IMG/VR virus record: IMGVR_UViG_2695420478_000017
Coordinates: 1 to 7,390 of that record
DNA: 7,390 nucleotides
Source of the DNA: a virus
Taxonomy: Duplodnaviria; Heunggongvirae; Uroviricota; Caudoviricetes
Reading direction: 5' to 3' (one strand)
A program made the translations under genes and the position numbers. Shown here piece after piece: positions 1-7,390 of the stretch; positions within the stretch are counted from its first letter, which is position 1, and every line of letters begins with the position of its first letter. The notes under the pieces were generated by a model, which did no database searches, was not told the origin of the DNA, and saw only the letters and a program-made list of their open reading frames with translations.

Positions 1-24
1 CGGCAGAAGCAGAAAAAGCTTATT

Positions 25-570
25 ATGCTTCCATCGGAAACGATGATCTGGCAGCCTGAGTTCACAGATAAAACACTCTCCAGGAAACCCGGGGCGGTTC
101 AAACCGAAGAAGTGGACCAGCTGGCATCAAAGTTAATGGCTGCAAGTGAGGAACTTCAAAAGCTGGGATGTTCATTTTACTCATGCGATGTCAGTTCATG
201 TTCGATTTATCTGACTGTATCTGGAAGAAGGGTTGGCTGGCATTCATACGGAAAAGACGGCAACGGTGAAGATATATTGCTCCCTACCCCCGACAAAGAT
301 AAATGCATGTTTGACGCAGAACACAAAATAACAAAAAGGTTTGATGAAATCTGCGCATTGCAACAAAAACTTGAAGCCAGGAAAAAGGATATAGAATCAA
401 ACGTATGGGCTGCTTTGAACTCAGTCACAACAGTTAAGCGACTTATTGAAGTTTGGCCTGAAAGCAAAGAGTTGCTACCAAAAGAAGCAGATAAAGCAAG
501 TGCAGCACTTCCTGCTTTACGGGTAGAAGATTTGAATAAGATGATTGGACTTCCTTCCGAGGCCGCATAA
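25..570 (+). CDS. Hypothetical protein, 181 aa from first ATG; start uncertain and possibly 5'-partial
   Basis: Long ORF with protein-like composition in the slot upstream of cIII where lambda carries ea10/ral. The frame is open back to position 1 and no strong SD precedes the ATG at 25 or 43, so the gene may begin upstream of the window. Product not recognised. Confidence 0.5.
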   Translation: MLPSETMIWQPEFTDKTLSRKPGAVQTEEVDQLASKLMAASEELQKLGCSFYSCDVSSCSIYLTVSGRRVGWHSYGKDGNGEDILLPTPDKDKCMFDAEHKITKRFDEICALQQKLEARKKDIESNVWAALNSVTTVKRLIEVWPESKELLPKEADKASAALPALRVEDLNKMIGLPSEAA

Positions 571-585
571 TCGGCCTTTATTTTT
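560..585 (+). terminator. Putative intrinsic terminator (stem aggccg/cggcct, 6-nt loop, then TTATTTTT)
   Basis: Hairpin at 560-577 followed by a T-rich tract at 578-585; it overlaps the stop codon of the upstream ORF. Confidence 0.4.
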
Positions 586-614
586 GGCATAAACAACAGA
601 ATAAACACTGCACT

Positions 615-642
615 GTGTATTCATTCCAACGAGTGAATACAC
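615..642 (+). other. Strong 12-bp inverted repeat / RNA hairpin, 4-nt loop, no U-tract
   Basis: gtgtattcattc (615-626) pairs with gagtgaatacac (631-642) with one G-U wobble; loop is caac. Not followed by a T run. Confidence 0.4.
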
Positions 643-704
643 GGAGCAATGTCGCTCGTAACTAAACAGGAGCCGACTTGTTCTGATTATTGGAAATCTT
701 CTTT

Positions 705-728
705 GCCCTCCAATGTGAGGGCTTTTTT
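705..728 (+). terminator. Intrinsic terminator (gccctc / caatgt / gagggc + TTTTTT)
   Basis: 6-bp GC-rich stem at 705-710 and 717-722, followed directly by six T at 723-728. Confidence 0.55.
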
Positions 729-794
729 ATATGCATACCAATAACGCTTCACTAGAGGCGTTTTCGTTATGTGTAAATAAATAAGGAGCACACC

Positions 795-959
795 ATGCAA
801 TATGCCATTGCAGGGTGGCCTGTTGCTGGCTGCCCTTCCGAATCTTTACTTGAACGAATCACCCGTAAATTACGTGACGGATGGAAACGCCTTATCGACA
901 TACTTAATCAGCCAGGAGTTCCCAAAAATGGATCAAACACTTATGGCTATCCAGACTAA
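795..959 (+). CDS. cIII: CIII, protease (FtsH) inhibitor that stabilises CII
   Basis: Translation [54 protein letters not shown] (54 aa) matches lambda CIII as recalled; SD TAAGGAG at 782-788. It is not in the ORF track as a separate ORF because it overlaps the frame-1 ORF 802-1071. Confidence 0.9.
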   Translation: MQYAIAGWPVAGCPSESLLERITRKLRDGWKRLIDILNQPGVPKNGSNTYGYPD

Positions 960-1071
960 ATTCACTATCGCCACTTTTATTGGTGATGAAAAGATGTTTC
1001 GTGAAGCCGTCGACGCTTATAAAAAATGGATATTAATACTGAAACTGAGATCAAGCAAAAGCATTCACTAA
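928..1071 (+). CDS. kil: Kil, host cell-division (FtsZ) inhibitor
   Basis: Internal Met of track ORF 802-1071 gives [47 protein letters not shown] (47 aa), matching lambda Kil; overlaps the cIII 3' end by 32 nt as in lambda. Confidence 0.85.
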
Positions 1072-1091
1072 CCCCTTTCCTGTTTTCCTAA
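1026..1091 (+). pseudogene. gam: Frame-disrupted remnant of the long-form Gam N-terminal extension
   Basis: ATG at 1026 encodes [18 protein letters not shown] then LFS-stop. The continuation [29 protein letters not shown] is readable in the GamS frame from about 1079. The two ATGs are 119 nt apart (not a multiple of 3). Confidence 0.6.
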
Positions 1092-1144
1092 TCAGCCCGG
1101 CATTTCGCGGGCGATATTTTCACAGCTATTTCAGGAGTTCAGCC

Positions 1145-1441
1145 ATGAACGCTTATTACATTCAGGATCGTCTTGAGGCTCAGAGCTGGGCGCGTCACTA
1201 CCAGCAGATCGCCCGTGAAGAGAAAGAGGCAGAACTGGCAGACGACATGGAAAAAGGCCTGCCCCAGCACCTGTTTGAATCGCTATGCATCGATCATTTG
1301 CAACGCCACGGGGCCAGCAAAAAAGCCATTATCCGTGCGTTTGATGACGATGTTGAGTTTCAGGAGCGCATGGCAGAACACATCCGGTACATGGTTGAAA
1401 CCATTGCTCACCATCAGGTTGATATTGATTCAGAGGTATAA
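1145..1441 (+). CDS. gam: Gam, short form (GamS, 98 aa), RecBCD inhibitor
   Basis: Translation [21 protein letters not shown]...[10 protein letters not shown] matches lambda Gam; strong SD AGGAG at 1133-1137, 7 nt before the ATG. Confidence 0.9.
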
Positions 1442-1446
1442 AACGG

Positions 1447-2217
1447 ATGAGTACAGCACTCGCAACGCTGGCAGGGAAGCTGGCTGAACGTGTCGGCATG
1501 GATTCTGTCGACCCACAGGAACTGATCACCACTCTTCGCCAGACGGCATTTAAAGGCGATGCCAGCGATGCGCAGTTCATCGCATTGTTGATCGTCGCCA
1601 ACCAGTACGGCCTTAATCCGTGGACGAAAGAAATTTACGCCTTCCCTGATAAGCAGAACGGCATCGTTCCGGTGGTGGGCGTTGATGGCTGGTCCCGCAT
1701 CATCAATGAAAACCAGCATTTTGATGGCATGGACTTTGAGCAGGACAATGAATCCTGTACATGCCGGATTTACCGCAAGGACCGTAATCATCCGATCTGC
1801 GTTACCGAATGGATGGATGAATGCCGCCGCGAACCATTCAAAACCCGCGAAGGCAGAGAAATCACGGGGCCGTGGCAGTCGCATCCTAAACGGATGTTAC
1901 GGCATAAAGCTATGATTCAGTGTGCCCGTCTGGCCTTCGGATTTGCTGGTATCTATGACAAGGATGAAGCCGAGCGCATTGTCGAAAATACTGCATACAC
2001 TGCAGAACGCCAGCCGGAACGCGACATCACTCCGGTTAACGATGAAACCATGCAGGAGATTAACACTCTGCTAATCGCCCTGGATAAAACATGGGATGAC
2101 GACTTATTGCCGCTCTGTTCCCAGATATTTCGCCGCGACATTCGCGCATCGTCAGAACTGACACAGGCCGAAGCAGTGAAAGCTCTTGGATTCCTGAAAC
2201 AGAAAGCCACTGAGTAG
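1447..2217 (+). CDS. bet: Bet (Red-beta) single-strand annealing protein, 256 aa; C-terminus 5 aa shorter than lambda Bet
   Basis: Translation matches lambda Bet from [26 protein letters not shown] to ...LGFLKQKA; it ends at TAG 2215-2217, while the lambda-position stop TGA at 2230-2232 is still in frame downstream. Confidence 0.93.
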
Positions 2218-2228
2218 AAGGTGGCAGC

Positions 2229-2909
2229 ATGACACCGGACATTATCCTGCAGCGTACCGGGATCGACGTGAGAGCTGTCGAACAGGGGGATGATGCATGG
2301 CACAAATTACGGCTCGGCGTCATCACCGCTTCAGAAGTTCACAACGTGATAGCAAAGCCCCGCTCAGGAAAGAAGTGGCCTGACATGAAAATGTCCTACT
2401 TCCACACCCTGCTGGCTGAGGTTTGCACCGGTGTGGCTCCGGAAGTTAATGCTAAGGCGCTGGCCTGGGGAAAACAGTACGAGAACGACGCCAGAACCCT
2501 CTTTGAGTTCACTTCCGGCGTTAATGTTACTGAATCCCCGATCATCTATCGCGACGAAAGTATGCGCACCGCCTGCTCTCCCGATGGTTTATGCAGTGAC
2601 GGCAACGGCCTTGAACTGAAATGCCCGTTTACCTCCCGGGATTTCATGAAATTCCGGCTCGGTGGTTTCGAGGCCATAAAATCGGCTTACCTGGCCCAGG
2701 TGCAGTACAGCATGTGGGTGACACGAAAAGATGCCTGGTACTTTGCCAACTATGACCCGCGTATGAAGCGTGAAGGCCTGCATTATGTCGTGGTTGAGCG
2801 GGATGAAAAGTACATGGCGGGTTTTGACGAGATGGTGCCGGAGTTCATCGAAAAAATGGACGAGGCACTGGCTGAAATTGGTTTTGTATTTGGGGAGCAA
2901 TGGCGATGA
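2229..2909 (+). CDS. exo: Exo (Red-alpha) 5'-3' dsDNA exonuclease, 226 aa
   Basis: Translation [50 protein letters not shown]...[10 protein letters not shown] matches lambda Exo with a few substitutions; SD AGGTGG upstream. Confidence 0.93.
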
Positions 2910-3088
2910 AGCATCCTCACGATAATATCCGGGTAGGTGCGATCACTTTCGTCTACTCCGTTACAAAGCGAGGCTGGGTATTTCCCGGCCTTTCTGTTAT
3001 CCAAAATCCACTGAAAGCCCAGCGGCTGGCTGAGGAGATAAATAATAAACGAGGGGCTGTATGCACAAAGCATCTCCTGTTGAGTTAA
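2906..3088 (+). CDS. Small protein, lambda orf60a-like (60 aa from ATG 2906; alternative ATG at 2900 gives 62 aa)
   Basis: ORF directly after exo; ATG 2906 overlaps the exo stop as ATGA, and length and position match lambda orf60a as recalled. The sequence match itself is from memory and unverified. Confidence 0.55.
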
Positions 3089-3252
3089 GAACGAGCATTG
3101 AGATGGCACATAGCCTTGCTCAAATTGGAGTCAGGTTTGTGCCAATACCAGTAGAAACAGACGAAGAATTTCATACGTTAGCCACATCCCTTTCGCAAAA
3201 GCTGGAAATGATGGTGGCGAAAGCAGAAGCAGATGAGAGAGACCTGGTATGA
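3061..3252 (+). CDS. Small protein, lambda orf63-like (63 aa)
   Basis: 63-codon ORF overlapping the previous gene by 28 nt, same geometry as lambda orf63/orf60a; translation [63 protein letters not shown]. Confidence 0.6.
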   Translation: MHKASPVELRTSIEMAHSLAQIGVRFVPIPVETDEEFHTLATSLSQKLEMMVAKAEADERDLV

Positions 3253-3332
3253 CAACCACTGAATGCATTTTTCTGGCAGCGGGCTTCATATTCTGTGTGC
3301 TTATGCTTGCCGACATGGGACTTGTTCAATGA
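3249..3332 (+). CDS. Candidate small hydrophobic (membrane) peptide, 27 aa
   Basis: ATG 3249 overlaps the orf63-like stop (ATGA) and its stop TGA 3330-3332 overlaps the next ATG at 3329 (ATGA). Translation MTTTECIFLAAGFIFCVLMLADMGLVQ has a hydrophobic core consistent with one transmembrane helix. Too short for the ORF track. Confidence 0.35.
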   Translation: MTTTECIFLAAGFIFCVLMLADMGLVQ

Positions 3333-3544
3333 CACCTCAGCAAGAAAACGCCCTTCGCAGTATTGCCCGTCAGGCTAATTCTGAAATCAAAAAAGCCAGA
3401 CAGCAGTTTCCGGATAAAAACGTCGATGACATTTGCCGTAGCGTACTGAAGAAGCACCGCGAAACGGTAACGCTGATGGGATTCACACCGACTCATTTAA
3501 GCCTGGCGATCGGCATGTTAAACGGCGTCTTTAAGGAACGGTGA
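3329..3544 (+). CDS. Hypothetical protein, 71 aa (track ORF 3263-3544 trimmed to the coupled internal ATG)
   Basis: ORF in frame with track ORF 3263-3544; start at 3329 preferred because it is translationally coupled to the upstream peptide. Translation MTPQQENALRSIARQANSEIKKARQQFPDKNVDDICRSVLKKHRETVTLMGFTPTHLSLAIGMLNGVFKER. Product not recognised. Confidence 0.45.
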   Translation: MTPQQENALRSIARQANSEIKKARQQFPDKNVDDICRSVLKKHRETVTLMGFTPTHLSLAIGMLNGVFKER

Positions 3545-3566
3545 GCATGAAAAACAAAATCATCAT

Positions 3567-3590
3567 GGAGCTACAGGCTCCTTTTTTATT
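3567..3590 (+). terminator. Putative intrinsic terminator (ggagc / tacag / gctcc + TTTTTTATT)
   Basis: 5-bp GC-rich stem at 3567-3571 and 3577-3581, then six T at 3582-3587. Confidence 0.4.
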
Positions 3591-3642
3591 ATTCGCATTC
3601 ACCCTCAAGCGTATTAACCAACAATTCAGGGATTAATGAAAG

Positions 3643-3864
3643 ATGGCAGACATCATTGATTCAGCATCAGAAATTGAAGAATTACAGCGCAACACAGCAA
3701 TAAAAATGCGCCGCCTGAACCACCAGGCTATATCTGCCACTCATTGTTGTGAGTGTGGCGATCCGATAGATGAGCGAAGACGCCTGGCTGTTCAGGGTTG
3801 TCGGACTTGTGCAAGTTGCCAGGAGGATCTGGAACTTATCAGTAAACAGAGAGGTTCGAAGTGA
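3643..3864 (+). CDS. TraR/DksA-family C4-type zinc-finger protein (73 aa), likely RNA polymerase secondary-channel binder
   Basis: Translation carries CCECGDPIDERRRLAVQGCRTCASCQ, i.e. two Cys pairs (CxxC...CxxC) near the C-terminus with an acidic N-terminal segment, the layout of TraR-like phage and plasmid proteins. Confidence 0.7.
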   Translation: MADIIDSASEIEELQRNTAIKMRRLNHQAISATHCCECGDPIDERRRLAVQGCRTCASCQEDLELISKQRGSK

Positions 3865-4631
3865 GCGAAATTAATTATCAGGCACTGCGTGAAAAGGCAG
3901 AAAAAGCAACTAAAGGAAGCTACATCGTAGGGCATACATCTGTTAATCGGCATGGCAATTTAACAGGAGTTTTTGTTTGTCAAAAATGGAAAGGAGAACC
4001 CGGTGGCGTGATTGCAGAATGTCACGTTAACTGCCTGGTTGAAACAGATGCTCAGGCTTATGCAAACGCTGAATTCATAGCAGAGGCTAACCCGGCTACC
4101 GTGCTGGAACTGCTGGATGAACGGGAAAGAAACCAGCAATACATCAAACGCCGCGACCAGGAGAACGAGGAGATTGCGCTTACGGTTGGGAAGCTGCGTG
4201 TTGAGCTTGAAGCAGCAGAGAACAACCTTATTGATAGTGAATGCCATGTTGCTGAACTGGAAGAAGCTCTACGCGATAAGCAGGCGTTACTTGAAGCCTC
4301 AGAAAAGCGCAACGCAAAATTACAAAGCGAGAATGCATACATCCGCAACCGGTACAAAGAACTGGACCTATTAATCGGGAAAAACATTCTGGTCATGCAG
4401 GCTGCCATTATCGAATGGCAGGCAACTGGCGACGCTAAGAGCGGACTAGCATGGATTTATAACACACTGTTTGGCCCTGGCGAATTACCGGACGAATCTG
4501 AGAAAGATGCTCAGGCCTACTTTAATCGCAAATATGCACCGATTGACGAAAATCTCATGGAGCTTCACAAGTGGTTTTGGGAACAAAGTGAAGCCGAGCG
4601 CGCCGCTGGCATTCGCATCAAAGGAGAGTGA
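3861..4631 (+). CDS. Ea22-like protein (256 aa), GTG start overlapping the upstream stop
   Basis: N-terminus MSEINYQALRE, central LELLDERERNQQYIKRRDQENEEIALTVGKLRVELE coiled-coil segment and C-terminal AGIRIKGE resemble lambda Ea22 as recalled; GTGA overlap with the TraR-like gene; SD-like AGAGAGG upstream. Confidence 0.7.
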   Translation: MSEINYQALREKAEKATKGSYIVGHTSVNRHGNLTGVFVCQKWKGEPGGVIAECHVNCLVETDAQAYANAEFIAEANPATVLELLDERERNQQYIKRRDQENEEIALTVGKLRVELEAAENNLIDSECHVAELEEALRDKQALLEASEKRNAKLQSENAYIRNRYKELDLLIGKNILVMQAAIIEWQATGDAKSGLAWIYNTLFGPGELPDESEKDAQAYFNRKYAPIDENLMELHKWFWEQSEAERAAGIRIKGE

Positions 4632-4632
4632 T

Positions 4633-5280
4633 ATGAGCGCTATAACCAAAGATCGACTACTGACAATCAAGCAGTGGCGCGAAACATACGGACCGGGTAG
4701 CAACGTTGTACTGCCAGCAGAAGAAGCGGAAGAACTGGCACGAATTGCGCTGGCATCACTGGAACGCGAACAGATTCGCCACGAGCATGCCAAATGGTCT
4801 GACTCCACATTTGGCTGCGTTGGCCCCATTGGTCCGCTGAAACATCTCTCAAAAGAGGCACTGGAAGCCGCAGCCGAACCAGACGATCTTAGCGAGTGGG
4901 CTGATATGCAGTTTCTGTTGTGGGATGCACAGCGCCGTGCTGGCATCAGCGATGCTGAAATTAACGTTGCTATGGAAGATAAATTGAAGATCAACATGGA
5001 GCGCCAGTGGCCTGAGCCAAAAGATGGTGAGCCTCGCTTGCACATTAAAGAACCCGGCAACTCTCCGGTAACTCCTGATGGTTGGATAAGCTGTAGTGAG
5101 CGAATGCCGGATACCAAAACAGCCGTTCTTGTTGCCAGGGAGTTTGACAGGAAAGGTGACTGGCGAATGAAATGGGCGACTTACATCCCGGGGCATCCTG
5201 ACGCTAATGATGGGTGGATAATTCCTGGTGCGTCGTGGAAACCGTCACACTGGATGCCGCTACCAGAGCCTCCCCTTTGA
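4633..5280 (+). CDS. Two-domain protein (215 aa): MazG-like all-alpha NTP pyrophosphohydrolase-like N-domain (DUF550-type) plus DUF551-like C-domain
   Basis: Track ORF 4471-5280 trimmed to ATG 4633, which has SD AAGGAGAG and sits 2 nt after the Ea22-like stop. N-terminal motifs (EEAEEL, HAKWS, STFG, LKHLSKEALE, EWAD, INMERQW) and the C-terminal WISCSERMPD ... SHWMPLPEPP pattern match those families as recalled. Confidence 0.6.
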   Translation: MSAITKDRLLTIKQWRETYGPGSNVVLPAEEAEELARIALASLEREQIRHEHAKWSDSTFGCVGPIGPLKHLSKEALEAAAEPDDLSEWADMQFLLWDAQRRAGISDAEINVAMEDKLKINMERQWPEPKDGEPRLHIKEPGNSPVTPDGWISCSERMPDTKTAVLVAREFDRKGDWRMKWATYIPGHPDANDGWIIPGASWKPSHWMPLPEPPL

Positions 5281-5376
5281 TAGCTAAGCTTATACATATC
5301 TTTTACATCAGCAATCTATTGTTAATCTCCAATCAATGTTACGTTGTCATCTCTCTCATGCTTTGGAGGTAGTGAT

Positions 5377-5556
5377 ATGTCTTGTCCAAAATGCGGTTCT
5401 GGAAATATTGCAAAAGAAAAAACAATGCGTGGATGGTCTGATGATTATGTGTGCTGCGATTGCGGATACAACGACTCTAAAGACGCATTTGGAGAGCGTG
5501 GTAAAAACGATTTTGTCAAAATTAATAAAGAACGCGAAGGCAACGAAAAAAGCTAA
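5377..5556 (+). CDS. Small zinc-ribbon protein, 59 aa (CPKCG ... CCDCG)
   Basis: Track ORF 5344-5556 trimmed to ATG 5377, which has a strong SD GGAGG at 5365-5369 (7-nt spacing). Two CxxC-type motifs: MSCPKCGSGN ... YVCCDCGYN. Confidence 0.55.
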   Translation: MSCPKCGSGNIAKEKTMRGWSDDYVCCDCGYNDSKDAFGERGKNDFVKINKEREGNEKS

Positions 5557-5619
5557 TTTATTTATTCATATATGAAAACAATGTAACCAATATTCGAATT
5601 GAAGAACTGAAAGAACACC

Positions 5620-5644
5620 AAGCCGCCTGATGGCGGTTTTTTTT
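5620..5644 (+). terminator. Intrinsic terminator (ccgcc / tgat / ggcgg + 8 T)
   Basis: GC stem at 5623-5627 and 5632-5636, extendable by a G-U and two A-U pairs, followed by TTTTTTTT at 5637-5644. Confidence 0.6.
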
Positions 5645-5658
5645 ATTGGAGACAAGAA

Positions 5659-6003
5659 ATGTCAGATTTGGCTATGAAGGTTTTGAAATGGCAATCGACT
5701 GGCGATGTTGGCATCAGTAGCGCAACTCTTGCCTCAATCGCATGTGGACTGAAAAAGAATATCTATGGTCATCACTTCGGCGCTCCCCATGACGCAGCCG
5801 ATTTCAGACGATGCGTTGCACTTGTTGAGCAGATTCCAGAAATCAGAGATTCATTCAACAAGGTTGCAAAGCGCGTTCCGGCATTCAAAGGAATCCTCAA
5901 CGAATGGGATTCCCTCGTTGCTCTGTTGAAGTCTGAAATGAAGATACACGGAAACAAAGCACCAGAGACTTACAGAAGAATCAGCGAGCTACGCAAGGAC
6001 TAA
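5659..6003 (+). CDS. Hypothetical protein, 114 aa, unknown function
   Basis: Clean ORF with SD GGAGA at 5648-5652 (6-nt spacing); bracketed by a terminator upstream and a hairpin plus terminator downstream. Product not recognised. Confidence 0.6.
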   Translation: MSDLAMKVLKWQSTGDVGISSATLASIACGLKKNIYGHHFGAPHDAADFRRCVALVEQIPEIRDSFNKVAKRVPAFKGILNEWDSLVALLKSEMKIHGNKAPETYRRISELRKD

Positions 6004-6018
6004 CCATGAAATAACACC

Positions 6019-6037
6019 GCCTCACACTCGGTGAGGC
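6019..6037. other. Hairpin (gcctcac / actcg / gtgaggc) just after the stop of the 114-aa gene
   Basis: Perfect 7-bp inverted repeat with a 5-nt loop; no clear U-tract on either strand. Confidence 0.3.
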
Positions 6038-6072
6038 CTGTTCATTGCTCAATGATATCCAGACCTACCATC

Positions 6073-6096
6073 GCCGCATCAATGCGGCTTTTTCTT
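6073..6096 (+). terminator. Putative intrinsic terminator (gccgca / tcaa / tgcggc + TTTTTCTT)
   Basis: 6-bp stem at 6073-6078 and 6083-6088, followed by a T-rich tract at 6089-6096. Confidence 0.5.
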
Positions 6097-6108
6097 GCGT
6101 GTAATTGC
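6095..6108 (+). promoter_or_regulatory. CII-binding direct repeat TTGC-N6-TTGC, the pI-type activator site for int
   Basis: TTGC at 6095-6098 and at 6105-6108 (TTGCGTGTAATTGC), just upstream of the xis ATG at 6121. This is the arrangement known for lambda pI, whose transcript starts inside xis. Confidence 0.55.
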
Positions 6109-6120
6109 GGAGACTTTGCG

Positions 6121-6339
6121 ATGTACTTGACACTTCAGGAGTGGAACGCTCGCCAGCGACGCCCAAGAAGCCTTGAAACAGTTCGTCGATGGGTGCGCGA
6201 ATGCAGGATATTCCCTCCTCCGGTTAAGGATGGAAGAGAGTATCTGTTCCACGAATCAGCGGTAAAGGTTGACTTAAATCGACCAGTAACAGGTAGCCTT
6301 TTGAAGAGGATCAGAAATGGGAAGAAGGCGAAGTCATGA
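6121..6339 (+). CDS. xis: Excisionase Xis (72 aa)
   Basis: Internal Met of track ORF 6031-6339 gives MYLTLQEWNARQRRPRSLETVRRWVRECRIFPPPVKDGREYLFHESAVKVDLNRPVTGSLLKRIRNGKKAKS, matching lambda Xis; 3' end overlaps the int start. Confidence 0.9.
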   Translation: MYLTLQEWNARQRRPRSLETVRRWVRECRIFPPPVKDGREYLFHESAVKVDLNRPVTGSLLKRIRNGKKAKS

Positions 6340-7390
6340 GCGCCGGGATTTACCCCCTAACCTTTATATAAGAAACAATGGATATTACTGCTACAGGGAC
6401 CCAAGGACGGGTAAAGAGTTTGGTTTAGGCCGAGACAGGAGGATAGCAATCACTGAAGCAATACAGGCCAATATTGAGTTACTCTCAGACAGCGGACGCA
6501 AATCACTAATAGACAGAATTAAAGGCGGTGACGCAATCACTCTTCATGTGTGGCTTGACCGATATGAAACAATCCTCACCGAAAGGGGGATCAGGCCGAA
6601 AACTCTACTCGACTACGCCAGCAAAATCAGGGCAATCCGAAGAAAATTGCCGGACAAACCGCTCACTGACATATCAACGAAAGAAGTGGCAGCAATGCTA
6701 AACACCTACGTAGCAGAAGGTAAAGCAGCTTCCGCAAAATTAATCAGGTCAACCCTTGTTGACGTTTTTCGTGAAGCAATAGCCGAGGGGCATGTGGCAA
6801 CGAATCCGGTAACAGCAACCCGTACAGCAAAGTCAGAAGTAAGGCGCTCAAGGCTGACAGCTAATGAGTATGTCGAGATTTACCATGCAGCCGAACCTCT
6901 CCCTATCTGGCTAAGGCTGGCGATGGATTTGGCCGTCGTTACAGGGCAGAGAGTCGGCGATTTGTGCAGAATGAAATGGTCAGACATAAACGACAACCAT
7001 CTTCACATTGAACAGAGTAAAACAGGGGCTAAACTCGCCATTCCGCTAACGCTAACGATTGACGCGCTCAATATCTCATTGGCTGATACACTACAGAAAT
7101 GCAGGGAGGCCAGCAGCAGTGAAACTATAATCGCATCAAAGCATTACGATCCTCTTTCCCCGAAAACAGTATCAAAGTATTTTACAAAGGCGAGAAATGC
7201 ATCTGGACTCTCATTTGATGGAAACCCGCCAACATTCCATGAACTGCGTAGCCTGTCAGCGAGGCTATACCGGAACCAGATTGGCGATAAATTTGCTCAA
7301 CGTCTTCTCGGGCATAAATCAGATTCAATGGCGGCGCGGTATAGAGACAGCCGTGGACGGGAATGGGACAAAATTGAAATCGACAAATGA
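6317..7390 (+). CDS. int: Tyrosine-family site-specific integrase Int (357 aa)
   Basis: N-terminus MGRRRSHERRDLPPNLYIRNNGYYCYRDPRTGKEFGLGRDRRIAITEAIQANIEL matches lambda Int; C-terminal catalytic signature present (VVTGQRVGDL, HELRSLSARLY, LLGHKSDSMAARYRD). Stop codon is the last 3 nt of the window. Confidence 0.95.
   Translation: MGRRRSHERRDLPPNLYIRNNGYYCYRDPRTGKEFGLGRDRRIAITEAIQANIELLSDSGRKSLIDRIKGGDAITLHVWLDRYETILTERGIRPKTLLDYASKIRAIRRKLPDKPLTDISTKEVAAMLNTYVAEGKAASAKLIRSTLVDVFREAIAEGHVATNPVTATRTAKSEVRRSRLTANEYVEIYHAAEPLPIWLRLAMDLAVVTGQRVGDLCRMKWSDINDNHLHIEQSKTGAKLAIPLTLTIDALNISLADTLQKCREASSSETIIASKHYDPLSPKTVSKYFTKARNASGLSFDGNPPTFHELRSLSARLYRNQIGDKFAQRLLGHKSDSMAARYRDSRGREWDKIEIDK

Follow-up and report, generated by a model that had tools for sequence, protein, structure and literature searches.

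A terminator-flanked ORF114 gene beside xis is probably a mosaic accessory cassette at the distal end of a lambdoid pL operon

Is a small gene that lies between two transcription terminators and directly upstream of xis and int an independently acquired piece of cargo? A preliminary description of a 7,390-nucleotide stretch of tailed-phage DNA (hereafter the window, meaning the whole stretch analyzed, positions 1-7,390 of the IMG/VR record IMGVR_UViG_2695420478_000017) had singled out a 114-aa gene as such a moron-like unit, insulated by terminators and a candidate for lysogen-benefit or defense functions. Morons, in the concept of Hendrix and Juhala, are reportedly units of promoter, gene and terminator that have been inserted between genes standing side by side in related phages. 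Here, we examine the anatomy, relatives and predicted fold of this gene, and propose that it forms a mosaic accessory cassette, located at the far end of the pL operon, a reading to which we assign a probability of roughly 60%.

The window corresponds to the leftward early (pL) arm of a lambdoid prophage and runs along pL transcription, with nutL and N lying outside it. Judged by its closest matches, the host element appears to be a lambdoid Stx1a-type prophage; the stretch from 5560 to 6120 is 100% identical to the Stx1a-converting phage Stx1a_EH2115 and ~95% identical to phages 434 and HK022, and the same values hold for the ORF114 unit against Stx1a phage LC744180 (100%) and 434 and HK022 (~95%). 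The arm upstream of the locus comprises:

782-840, Rfam Lambda_thermo (cIII thermoregulator), 88.5 bits, preceding cIII
795-959, cIII
after cIII and before gam, kil
1145-1441, gam
1447-2217, bet
2229-2909, exo
between exo and the Ea22-like gene, orf60a/orf63-like genes
3861-4631, Ea22-like gene
4633-5280, dATP/dGTP pyrophosphohydrolase-DUF551 gene (PF04447 E 2e-41, DUF551 E 2.5e-21)
5344-5556, Zn-ribbon gene, 70 aa, four cysteines (weak Pfam matches to HVO_2753_ZBP and Lar_restr_allev; phrog_2945)

If read from TTG 4471, which gives its longest reading frame, the pyrophosphohydrolase-DUF551 gene shares sequence with the end of the Ea22-like gene. The Ea22-like product matches the PADLOC model DpdH over residues 145-243 (PDLC02890, E 6.7e-35), a model that may simply capture a phage-derived domain. 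The locus under study follows, all on the plus strand:

5583-5630, +, non-coding remnant of orf55: the last 15 codons and stop (VTNIRIEELKEHQAA*) of lambda/434 orf55
5620-5644, +, intrinsic terminator T1: 8-bp stem AAGCCGCC/GGCGGTTT (5620-5639), loop TGAT, eight T (5637-5644)
5648-5651, +, Shine-Dalgarno GGAG, 7 nt before the ATG, within the conserved linker (A)TTGGAGACAAGAAATG
5659-6003, +, ORF114, 114 aa: phage 434 ORF114, homolog of HK022p30, PHROG 1229; predicted seven-helix protein
6006-6069, +, 5' fossil of an HTH_17-type excisionase gene: ATG 6006, stop at codon 3, 1-nt insertion near 6052
6073-6096, +, intrinsic terminator T2, t'I of phage 434: 6-bp GC stem, T5
6095-6126, +, pI promoter with CII box TTGC-N6-TTGC (6095-6108), overlapping the T2 end and the xis start
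6121-6339, +, xis, lambda-type excisionase, 72 aa, aligned with 434 and lambda
6317-7390, +, int, lambda-type tyrosine integrase, 357 aa

The reading frame and its ribosome-binding site were recovered exactly as first described, with the quoted translation at 5659-6003, GGAG at 5648-5651 and a gap of exactly 14 nucleotides (5645-5658) between the upstream T-tract and the ATG. The linker (A)TTGGAGACAAGAAATG is invariant in five phages. ORF114 is a real gene, since dN/dS is 0.08-0.15 in every informative pair among five phage copies, homologs reach into phages of Actinobacteria, and AlphaFold2 (59 diverse sequences) returns a seven-helix model with pLDDT 95.6 and pTM 0.88. It is also neither new nor rare. 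The gene and t'I were already known and long sequenced: GenBank M60848 of phage 434 annotates, in order, ORF55, ORF114, terminator t'-I, xis and int. ORF114 of coliphage 434 (protein AAA67902; CPT_434_33 in OL657226) and HK022p30 are the same gene as the window's; the 434 copy is of equal length, 96.5% identical in amino acids and ~95% in DNA, and phage 720R6 differs from the window copy by one synonymous change and nothing else. Window, 434 and HK022 are alike in the Shine-Dalgarno sequence, the xis fossil, the t'I terminator and the position before pI-xis-int. They differ upstream, where 434 and HK022 carry an intact orf55 while the window retains only its last 48 nt, preceded by the Zn-ribbon gene, and the window differs from 434 by a 10-nt insertion after the ORF114 stop codon.

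An intact copy is present in 915 of 5426 complete E. coli genomes (17%), including Stx phages, always annotated as "hypothetical protein". The protein was found in no searchable paper by name, PHROG number or sequence, is absent from the supplements of the accessory-gene screen of Silas et al., and falls outside the coverage of the exo-xis review. The initial statement that the gene has no recognizable family thus stands insofar as no characterized family is matched; it falls insofar as the gene is known as 434 ORF114 and PHROG 1229. In Stx phages 86 and P27 the first 56 codons alone remain, and eight database proteins (P0015, P0018, P0030, P0037, P0051, P0053, P0063 and P0193) combine a portion of ORF114 with fragments of Ea22, ERF, Kil or the pyrophosphohydrolase. 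These chimeras and remnants suggest recombination joints and deletions inside the gene.

Both terminators reported beside the gene are present. T1 folds at -13.1 kcal/mol (z = -2.7 against shuffles) and carries its eight T as described; T2 reads GCCGCA-TCAA-TGCGGC (6073-6088) followed by TTTTT and folds at -10.5 kcal/mol (z = -2.5). What does not survive is their interpretation as insulation of acquired cargo. T2 carries the label t'-I in M60848 and is recorded as a terminator, with PMID 6305007 cited, in OL657226, where the CII-dependent pI promoter and CII box are annotated directly after it. Carrying the pI and CII-box coordinates over from OL657226 by alignment places T2 at 6073-6096, the CII box at 6095-6108 and the xis ATG at 6121, the junction of lambda, in which t'I stands immediately upstream of the CII-activated int promoter; in the window, T2 and the CII box have 2 nt in common. 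By comparison with relatives, T1 is the terminator that closes orf55/lambdap35, and in lambda it lies directly before pI/xis. The T1 hairpin thus fills the t'I place in lambda, whereas the window has both T1 and T2 with ORF114 between them, and this duplicated-terminator geometry could pass for private insulation.

Terminator-like hairpins are moreover in excess throughout the window, which contains 20 of them, mostly on the plus strand, where 7.8 +/- 2.9 would be expected, so terminator flanking is a property of the operon and no special mark of ORF114. Such an excess fits an operon that depends on antitermination. Further plus-strand examples lie at 559-578, 705-722, 743-762, 2970-2992 and 3567-3581. 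A search for sigma-70-like promoters on the plus strand near 5300-5660 found none, in agreement with the earlier remark that no promoter could be assigned, and Rfam gave no RNA family in or near the ORF114 unit.

The flanks of the gene are lined with remnants of other genes. Upstream, homology to 434 and lambda begins at 5583 and ends with the orf55 stop, whose TGA (5628-5630) sits in the T1 loop; no ORF of at least 40 aa covers 5583-5630. In phage 933W, too, these last 16 codons of orf55 are retained, there next to an unrelated xis (locus L145, 1714-1761), in line with a remark in PMC8614690. The Zn-ribbon gene took the place of the 5' part of orf55. It lies within the only low-GC patch of the window (5250-5700, GC 0.36-0.40), upstream of ORF114, and is by composition the better candidate for a recent acquisition.

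Downstream, the palindrome that had been counted as part of the gene unit does exist (6019-6037; 7-bp stem, -13.4 kcal/mol, z = -4.0, with none of 200 shuffles folding as well), but it is explained by coding sequence. A frame opening at ATG 6006, two bases past the ORF114 stop, reads MK*HRLTLGEACSLLNDIQTYHRR, and the palindrome within it corresponds to codons LTL(D/G)EAC. An exact-pattern scan of viral contigs returned at least 120 palindrome loci. Among those listed, 29 have ORF114 upstream, and in most the palindrome forms codons 5-12 (LTLDEAC) of an intact ORF of 116-151 aa. The intact ORFs begin ME(S/P)YSLTLDEAC.FLKISRPTA.NWIRTGRLQ... and contain an HTH_17 excisionase-type domain (E 1.2e-8); such HTH_17 proteins adjoin or overlap integrase genes in 162 phage records. 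On the strength of these matches we rejected a functional RNA hairpin of the cassette. The segment 6006-6069 is the stub of another xis gene, left when the lambda-type t'I-pI-xis-int module was joined on, and records an earlier arrangement of ORF114 with an HTH_17 xis.

Alignment to lambda shows where the genomes differ. Lambda joins orf55 and T1 directly to pI/xis, its junction reading ...GGCGGTTTTTTCT followed by TGCGTGTAATTGC, whereas 434 and the window hold ~450 bp between these points, made up of the Shine-Dalgarno sequence, ORF114, a 70-nt spacer with the xis fossil, and the second terminator t'I. Lambda's T1-pI join (...GGCGGTTTTTTCT to TGCGTGTAATTGCGG) has its counterpart at the second terminator of 434 and the window (GCGGCTTTTT to CTTGCGTG). 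The aligned sequences indicate that the block of Shine-Dalgarno sequence, ORF114, xis fossil and t'I is an insertion or deletion relative to lambda. The T-tracts of two terminators that resemble each other (GGCGGTTTTTT and GCGGCTTTTT) hold both junctions, so that the difference is a short-homology indel. The comparison of collinear phages that had been suggested as a check therefore comes out positive: the block is present in 434, 720R6 and the window and missing in lambda, between genes that are adjacent in the relative.

The unit that travels is smaller than this block. The Shine-Dalgarno sequence, ORF114 and the xis stub are conserved in 434, 720R6, Stx2a_WGPS6 and Salmonella phage g341c, and stand beside three unrelated integration modules: lambda-type, AlpA/P4-type and HK620-type. 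Stx2a_WGPS6 has an AlpA-type xis and a different terminator, and g341c an HK620-type module. An obligatory pairing of orf55 with ORF114 was considered and rejected, as lambda has orf55 alone while the window and g341c have ORF114 alone. A census of the 300 nt upstream of an HTH_17 xis or stub, covering 118 contigs among the matches listed, found at least 20 unrelated sequence clusters in this slot; among these listed contigs ORF114 occupies 27, and two other occupants take 50 and 18.

The linkers that precede ORF114 also differ, being of the orf55 type in some phages and, in g341c and SPN9CC, of the lambda "tL4" type that precedes orf55 in lambda. Each consists of a terminator, then a T-tract, (A)T(T)GGAGA, N7 and ATG, and analogous linkers of terminator, T-tract, GGAG(A/G) and ATG are found before orf55 in lambda and in Mannheimia phage vB_MhS_1152AP2. 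A 33%-identical homolog in the latter phage (locus L019, 2444-3140) has the layout terminator, gene, terminator, xis, int; its upstream terminator is annotated, its Int is of the lambda family (26% identical) and its Xis is unrelated. Because varied linkers and 1152AP2 share one layout, terminator flanking is normal punctuation of this operon segment rather than private insulation.

In lambda-type phages, N-modified polymerase resists terminators, and HK022 uses put-mediated antitermination. As ORF114 has no sigma-70-like promoter of its own, T1 lies 14 nt upstream and pI lies downstream, it should be reachable only by terminator-resistant pL transcription, although a weak or non-sigma-70 promoter is conceivable. 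We propose that the gene would be transcribed solely by antiterminated (N-modified) pL read-through of the terminator chain, and would therefore be delayed-early, switched on early after infection or after induction and silent in a repressed lysogen. The terminators would act as operon punctuation that keeps xis and int silent when antitermination is off, and may double as short homology patches for cassette exchange. This dependence on read-through is inferred from the anatomy of the locus and from textbook lambda N antitermination.

The protein belongs to a large family. An exhaustive HMMER search yielded at least 1859 cluster representatives (50% identity) at E 1e-3 or better, 182 of them at 1e-10 or better, and tblastn placed members in Vibrio, Salmonella, Klebsiella, Mannheimia, Gordonia and Arthrobacter phages, all annotated "hypothetical". 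The window protein matches phrog_1229 over residues 1-114 (E 1.1e-51); the related PHROGs 1229, 15291, 4212 and 8038 are all families of unknown function. Pfam, NCBIfam and PADLOC profiles gave no match, nor did PDB sequence searches with the single protein and the family profile, and the predicted fold resembles no solved structure. Invariant or near-invariant positions are W11, G18, S20, S21, P43, D45, D48, R51, C52, L55, P60, E61, W83 and D84, with R63 and E93 conserved alongside the polar ones; the signature residues W11, G18, S20, S21, P43, D45, D48, R51, C52 and W83 (59 and 39 diverse members) all occur in the window protein. The domain is also found fused to several unrelated, unannotated partner domains, and no fold match was obtained when one of these fusions was modeled. 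One metagenomic phage contig carries tandem family paralogs (L008, 5604-6372), and protein P0076 (333 aa) contains the domain twice. Since the family is mostly acidic (pI median 5.7, range 4.5-9.7), generic, charge-driven DNA binding is unlikely, and a classical HTH or TetR-like DNA binder was rejected on fold, profile and charge.

Distant members of the family reside almost without exception in co-directional phage early clusters. A family gene comes directly after RdgC, its start overlapping the RdgC stop by 4 nt, in Salmonella phage SP069 (L023, 1572-2818), Klebsiella phage BU9 (L017, 1072-2315) and a metagenomic contig (L014, 5096-6594). This pairing occurs in at least two separate lineages. 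In a Brevibacterium prophage the family member lies downstream of YqaJ-RecT-SSB, in Vibrio phage K250 RusA lies upstream of it, and in SPN9CC it ends an erf-abc operon, bet-exo being in the same arm in the window; integrases or excisionases are nearby in several prophages.

We tentatively propose, as a minority possibility, that ORF114 is a compact, non-membrane seven-helix module whose polar patch (S20, S21, D45, D48, R51, C52, E61, R63, D84, E93) would bind a specific partner, most likely a recombination or repair protein of phage or host, and that this binding would tune early development, as other exo-xis genes do. For the family at large, a role in keeping with this is conceivable though rather doubtful: widespread phage early proteins, from phages of Proteobacteria to those of Actinobacteria, with no Pfam entry and a fold unseen in solved structures, might act specifically at the interface of recombination/repair and host control, for example as partner or regulator of RdgC/RecT-type proteins or as a counter-defense binder. 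The recombination/repair link is weak guilt by association, as such genes are common in early regions anyway.

A catalytic or ligand-binding pocket could account just as well for many of the invariant acidic, basic, Ser and Cys residues, and the protein might then be a small enzyme or a binder of small molecules or nucleotides, such as a sponge or modifier of a host signal or nucleotide, rather than a protein-protein binder. Polar invariants (S20, S21, D45, D48, R51 and C52, with conserved E61, R63, D84 and E93) are unusually dense for 114 aa, the Ser-Ser at a helix N-terminus and the acidic cluster would be typical of phosphate or metal sites, and the operon is shared with a dATP/dGTP pyrophosphohydrolase. 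We regard this alternative as unlikely.

Position directly upstream of xis raises another possibility, that ORF114 is an accessory factor of site-specific recombination acting with Xis/Int, for example on the directionality or timing of excision. The gene adjoins xis/int in lambda-type, AlpA/P4-type and HK620-type modules, the 33%-identical homolog in 1152AP2 holds the same position beside its 26%-identical lambda-family Int, and two further prophages have an integrase 1-6 genes away from the homolog. However, lambda, Phi24B and 933W integrate and excise without ORF114, the neighboring Xis proteins are mutually unrelated and so offer no common partner, and many homologs have annotated neighbors that include RdgC, RusA, methylases or tail genes but no integrase. 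With at least 20 unrelated occupants of the xis-proximal slot, position alone is weak evidence, and we consider a role with Xis/Int quite improbable.

Least of all do we favor a true moron or lysogenic-conversion gene, with its own transcription in the repressed prophage, a benefit such as anti-phage defense, and terminators that insulate it. ORF114 does resemble lambdoid morons as a single gene with a downstream terminator, present or absent between collinear genomes and bounded by terminators in a variable accessory slot beside the integration module; an intact copy in 17% of complete E. coli genomes and two distant homologs reversed inside tail-gene clusters, as classical morons are, point the same way. 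These two, at L013 6001-6357 and in Vibrio phage K72 (L022, 2372-2830), lie between tail genes, so family members can be expressed independently. Unlike morons, however, ORF114 has no promoter-like site by the sigma-70-like search, its ATG following 14 nt after the T-run of a strong terminator, and it shares the orientation and apparent transcription unit of the operon. Its composition (GC 0.464, GC3 0.478) equals that of the window (GC 0.476), and so gives no sign of foreign origin. The terminator directly downstream is T2, which belongs to the pI/xis junction, and the flanking terminators also occur in genomes that lack the gene, t'I being annotated in 434 and T1 being present in lambda and 933W without ORF114. 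PADLOC-DB 2.0 defense-system HMMs returned 0 families at E up to 1. The suggestion of a lysogen-benefit or defense function is further undercut by the distant homologs, most of which are embedded in co-directional phage early operons, often translationally coupled through overlapping stop and start codons, and point to a role early in lytic growth or induction. A moron in the full sense is thus very improbable; of the original proposal, the mobile unit, the variable slot and the uncharacterized protein stand, and the autonomous, insulated, lysogen-expressed cargo does not.

As a cassette of the pL operon, ORF114 shares a compartment with the lambdoid exo-xis genes such as lambda ea8.5 and orf55, which are small, non-essential and expressed early from pL (PMC8614690, PMC3824215). 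It belongs to the "variable set of downstream genes" that follows the orf60a-orf63-orf61-orf73-ea22 block, and is related neither in sequence nor in fold to Ea8.5, orf55 or other exo-xis products. Studies of the exo-xis region have used lambda, Phi24B and 933W (PMC3824215, PMC8614690; work of Wegrzyn and Donaldson). A search of these three phages found ORF114 absent from all of them; because the model phages lack it, the gene was never tested in those studies, and none of the phenotypes and models reported for them covers it.

As a genomic feature the locus is ordinary, a known hypothetical gene in a known lambdoid mosaic architecture, in which shared punctuation of the operon and remnants of genes account for the "insulating" terminators and the "hairpin". 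It provides a clean, base-resolved case of cassette exchange beside xis whose traces are terminator/Shine-Dalgarno linkers and gene stubs, and a caution for readers who take terminator flanking as a moron signature. The remaining interest lies in the protein family, which is large, conserved and structurally unlike anything solved. Intact in 17% of complete E. coli genomes, under purifying selection, confidently modeled and without a Pfam entry, the ORF114 protein is a good experimental target.
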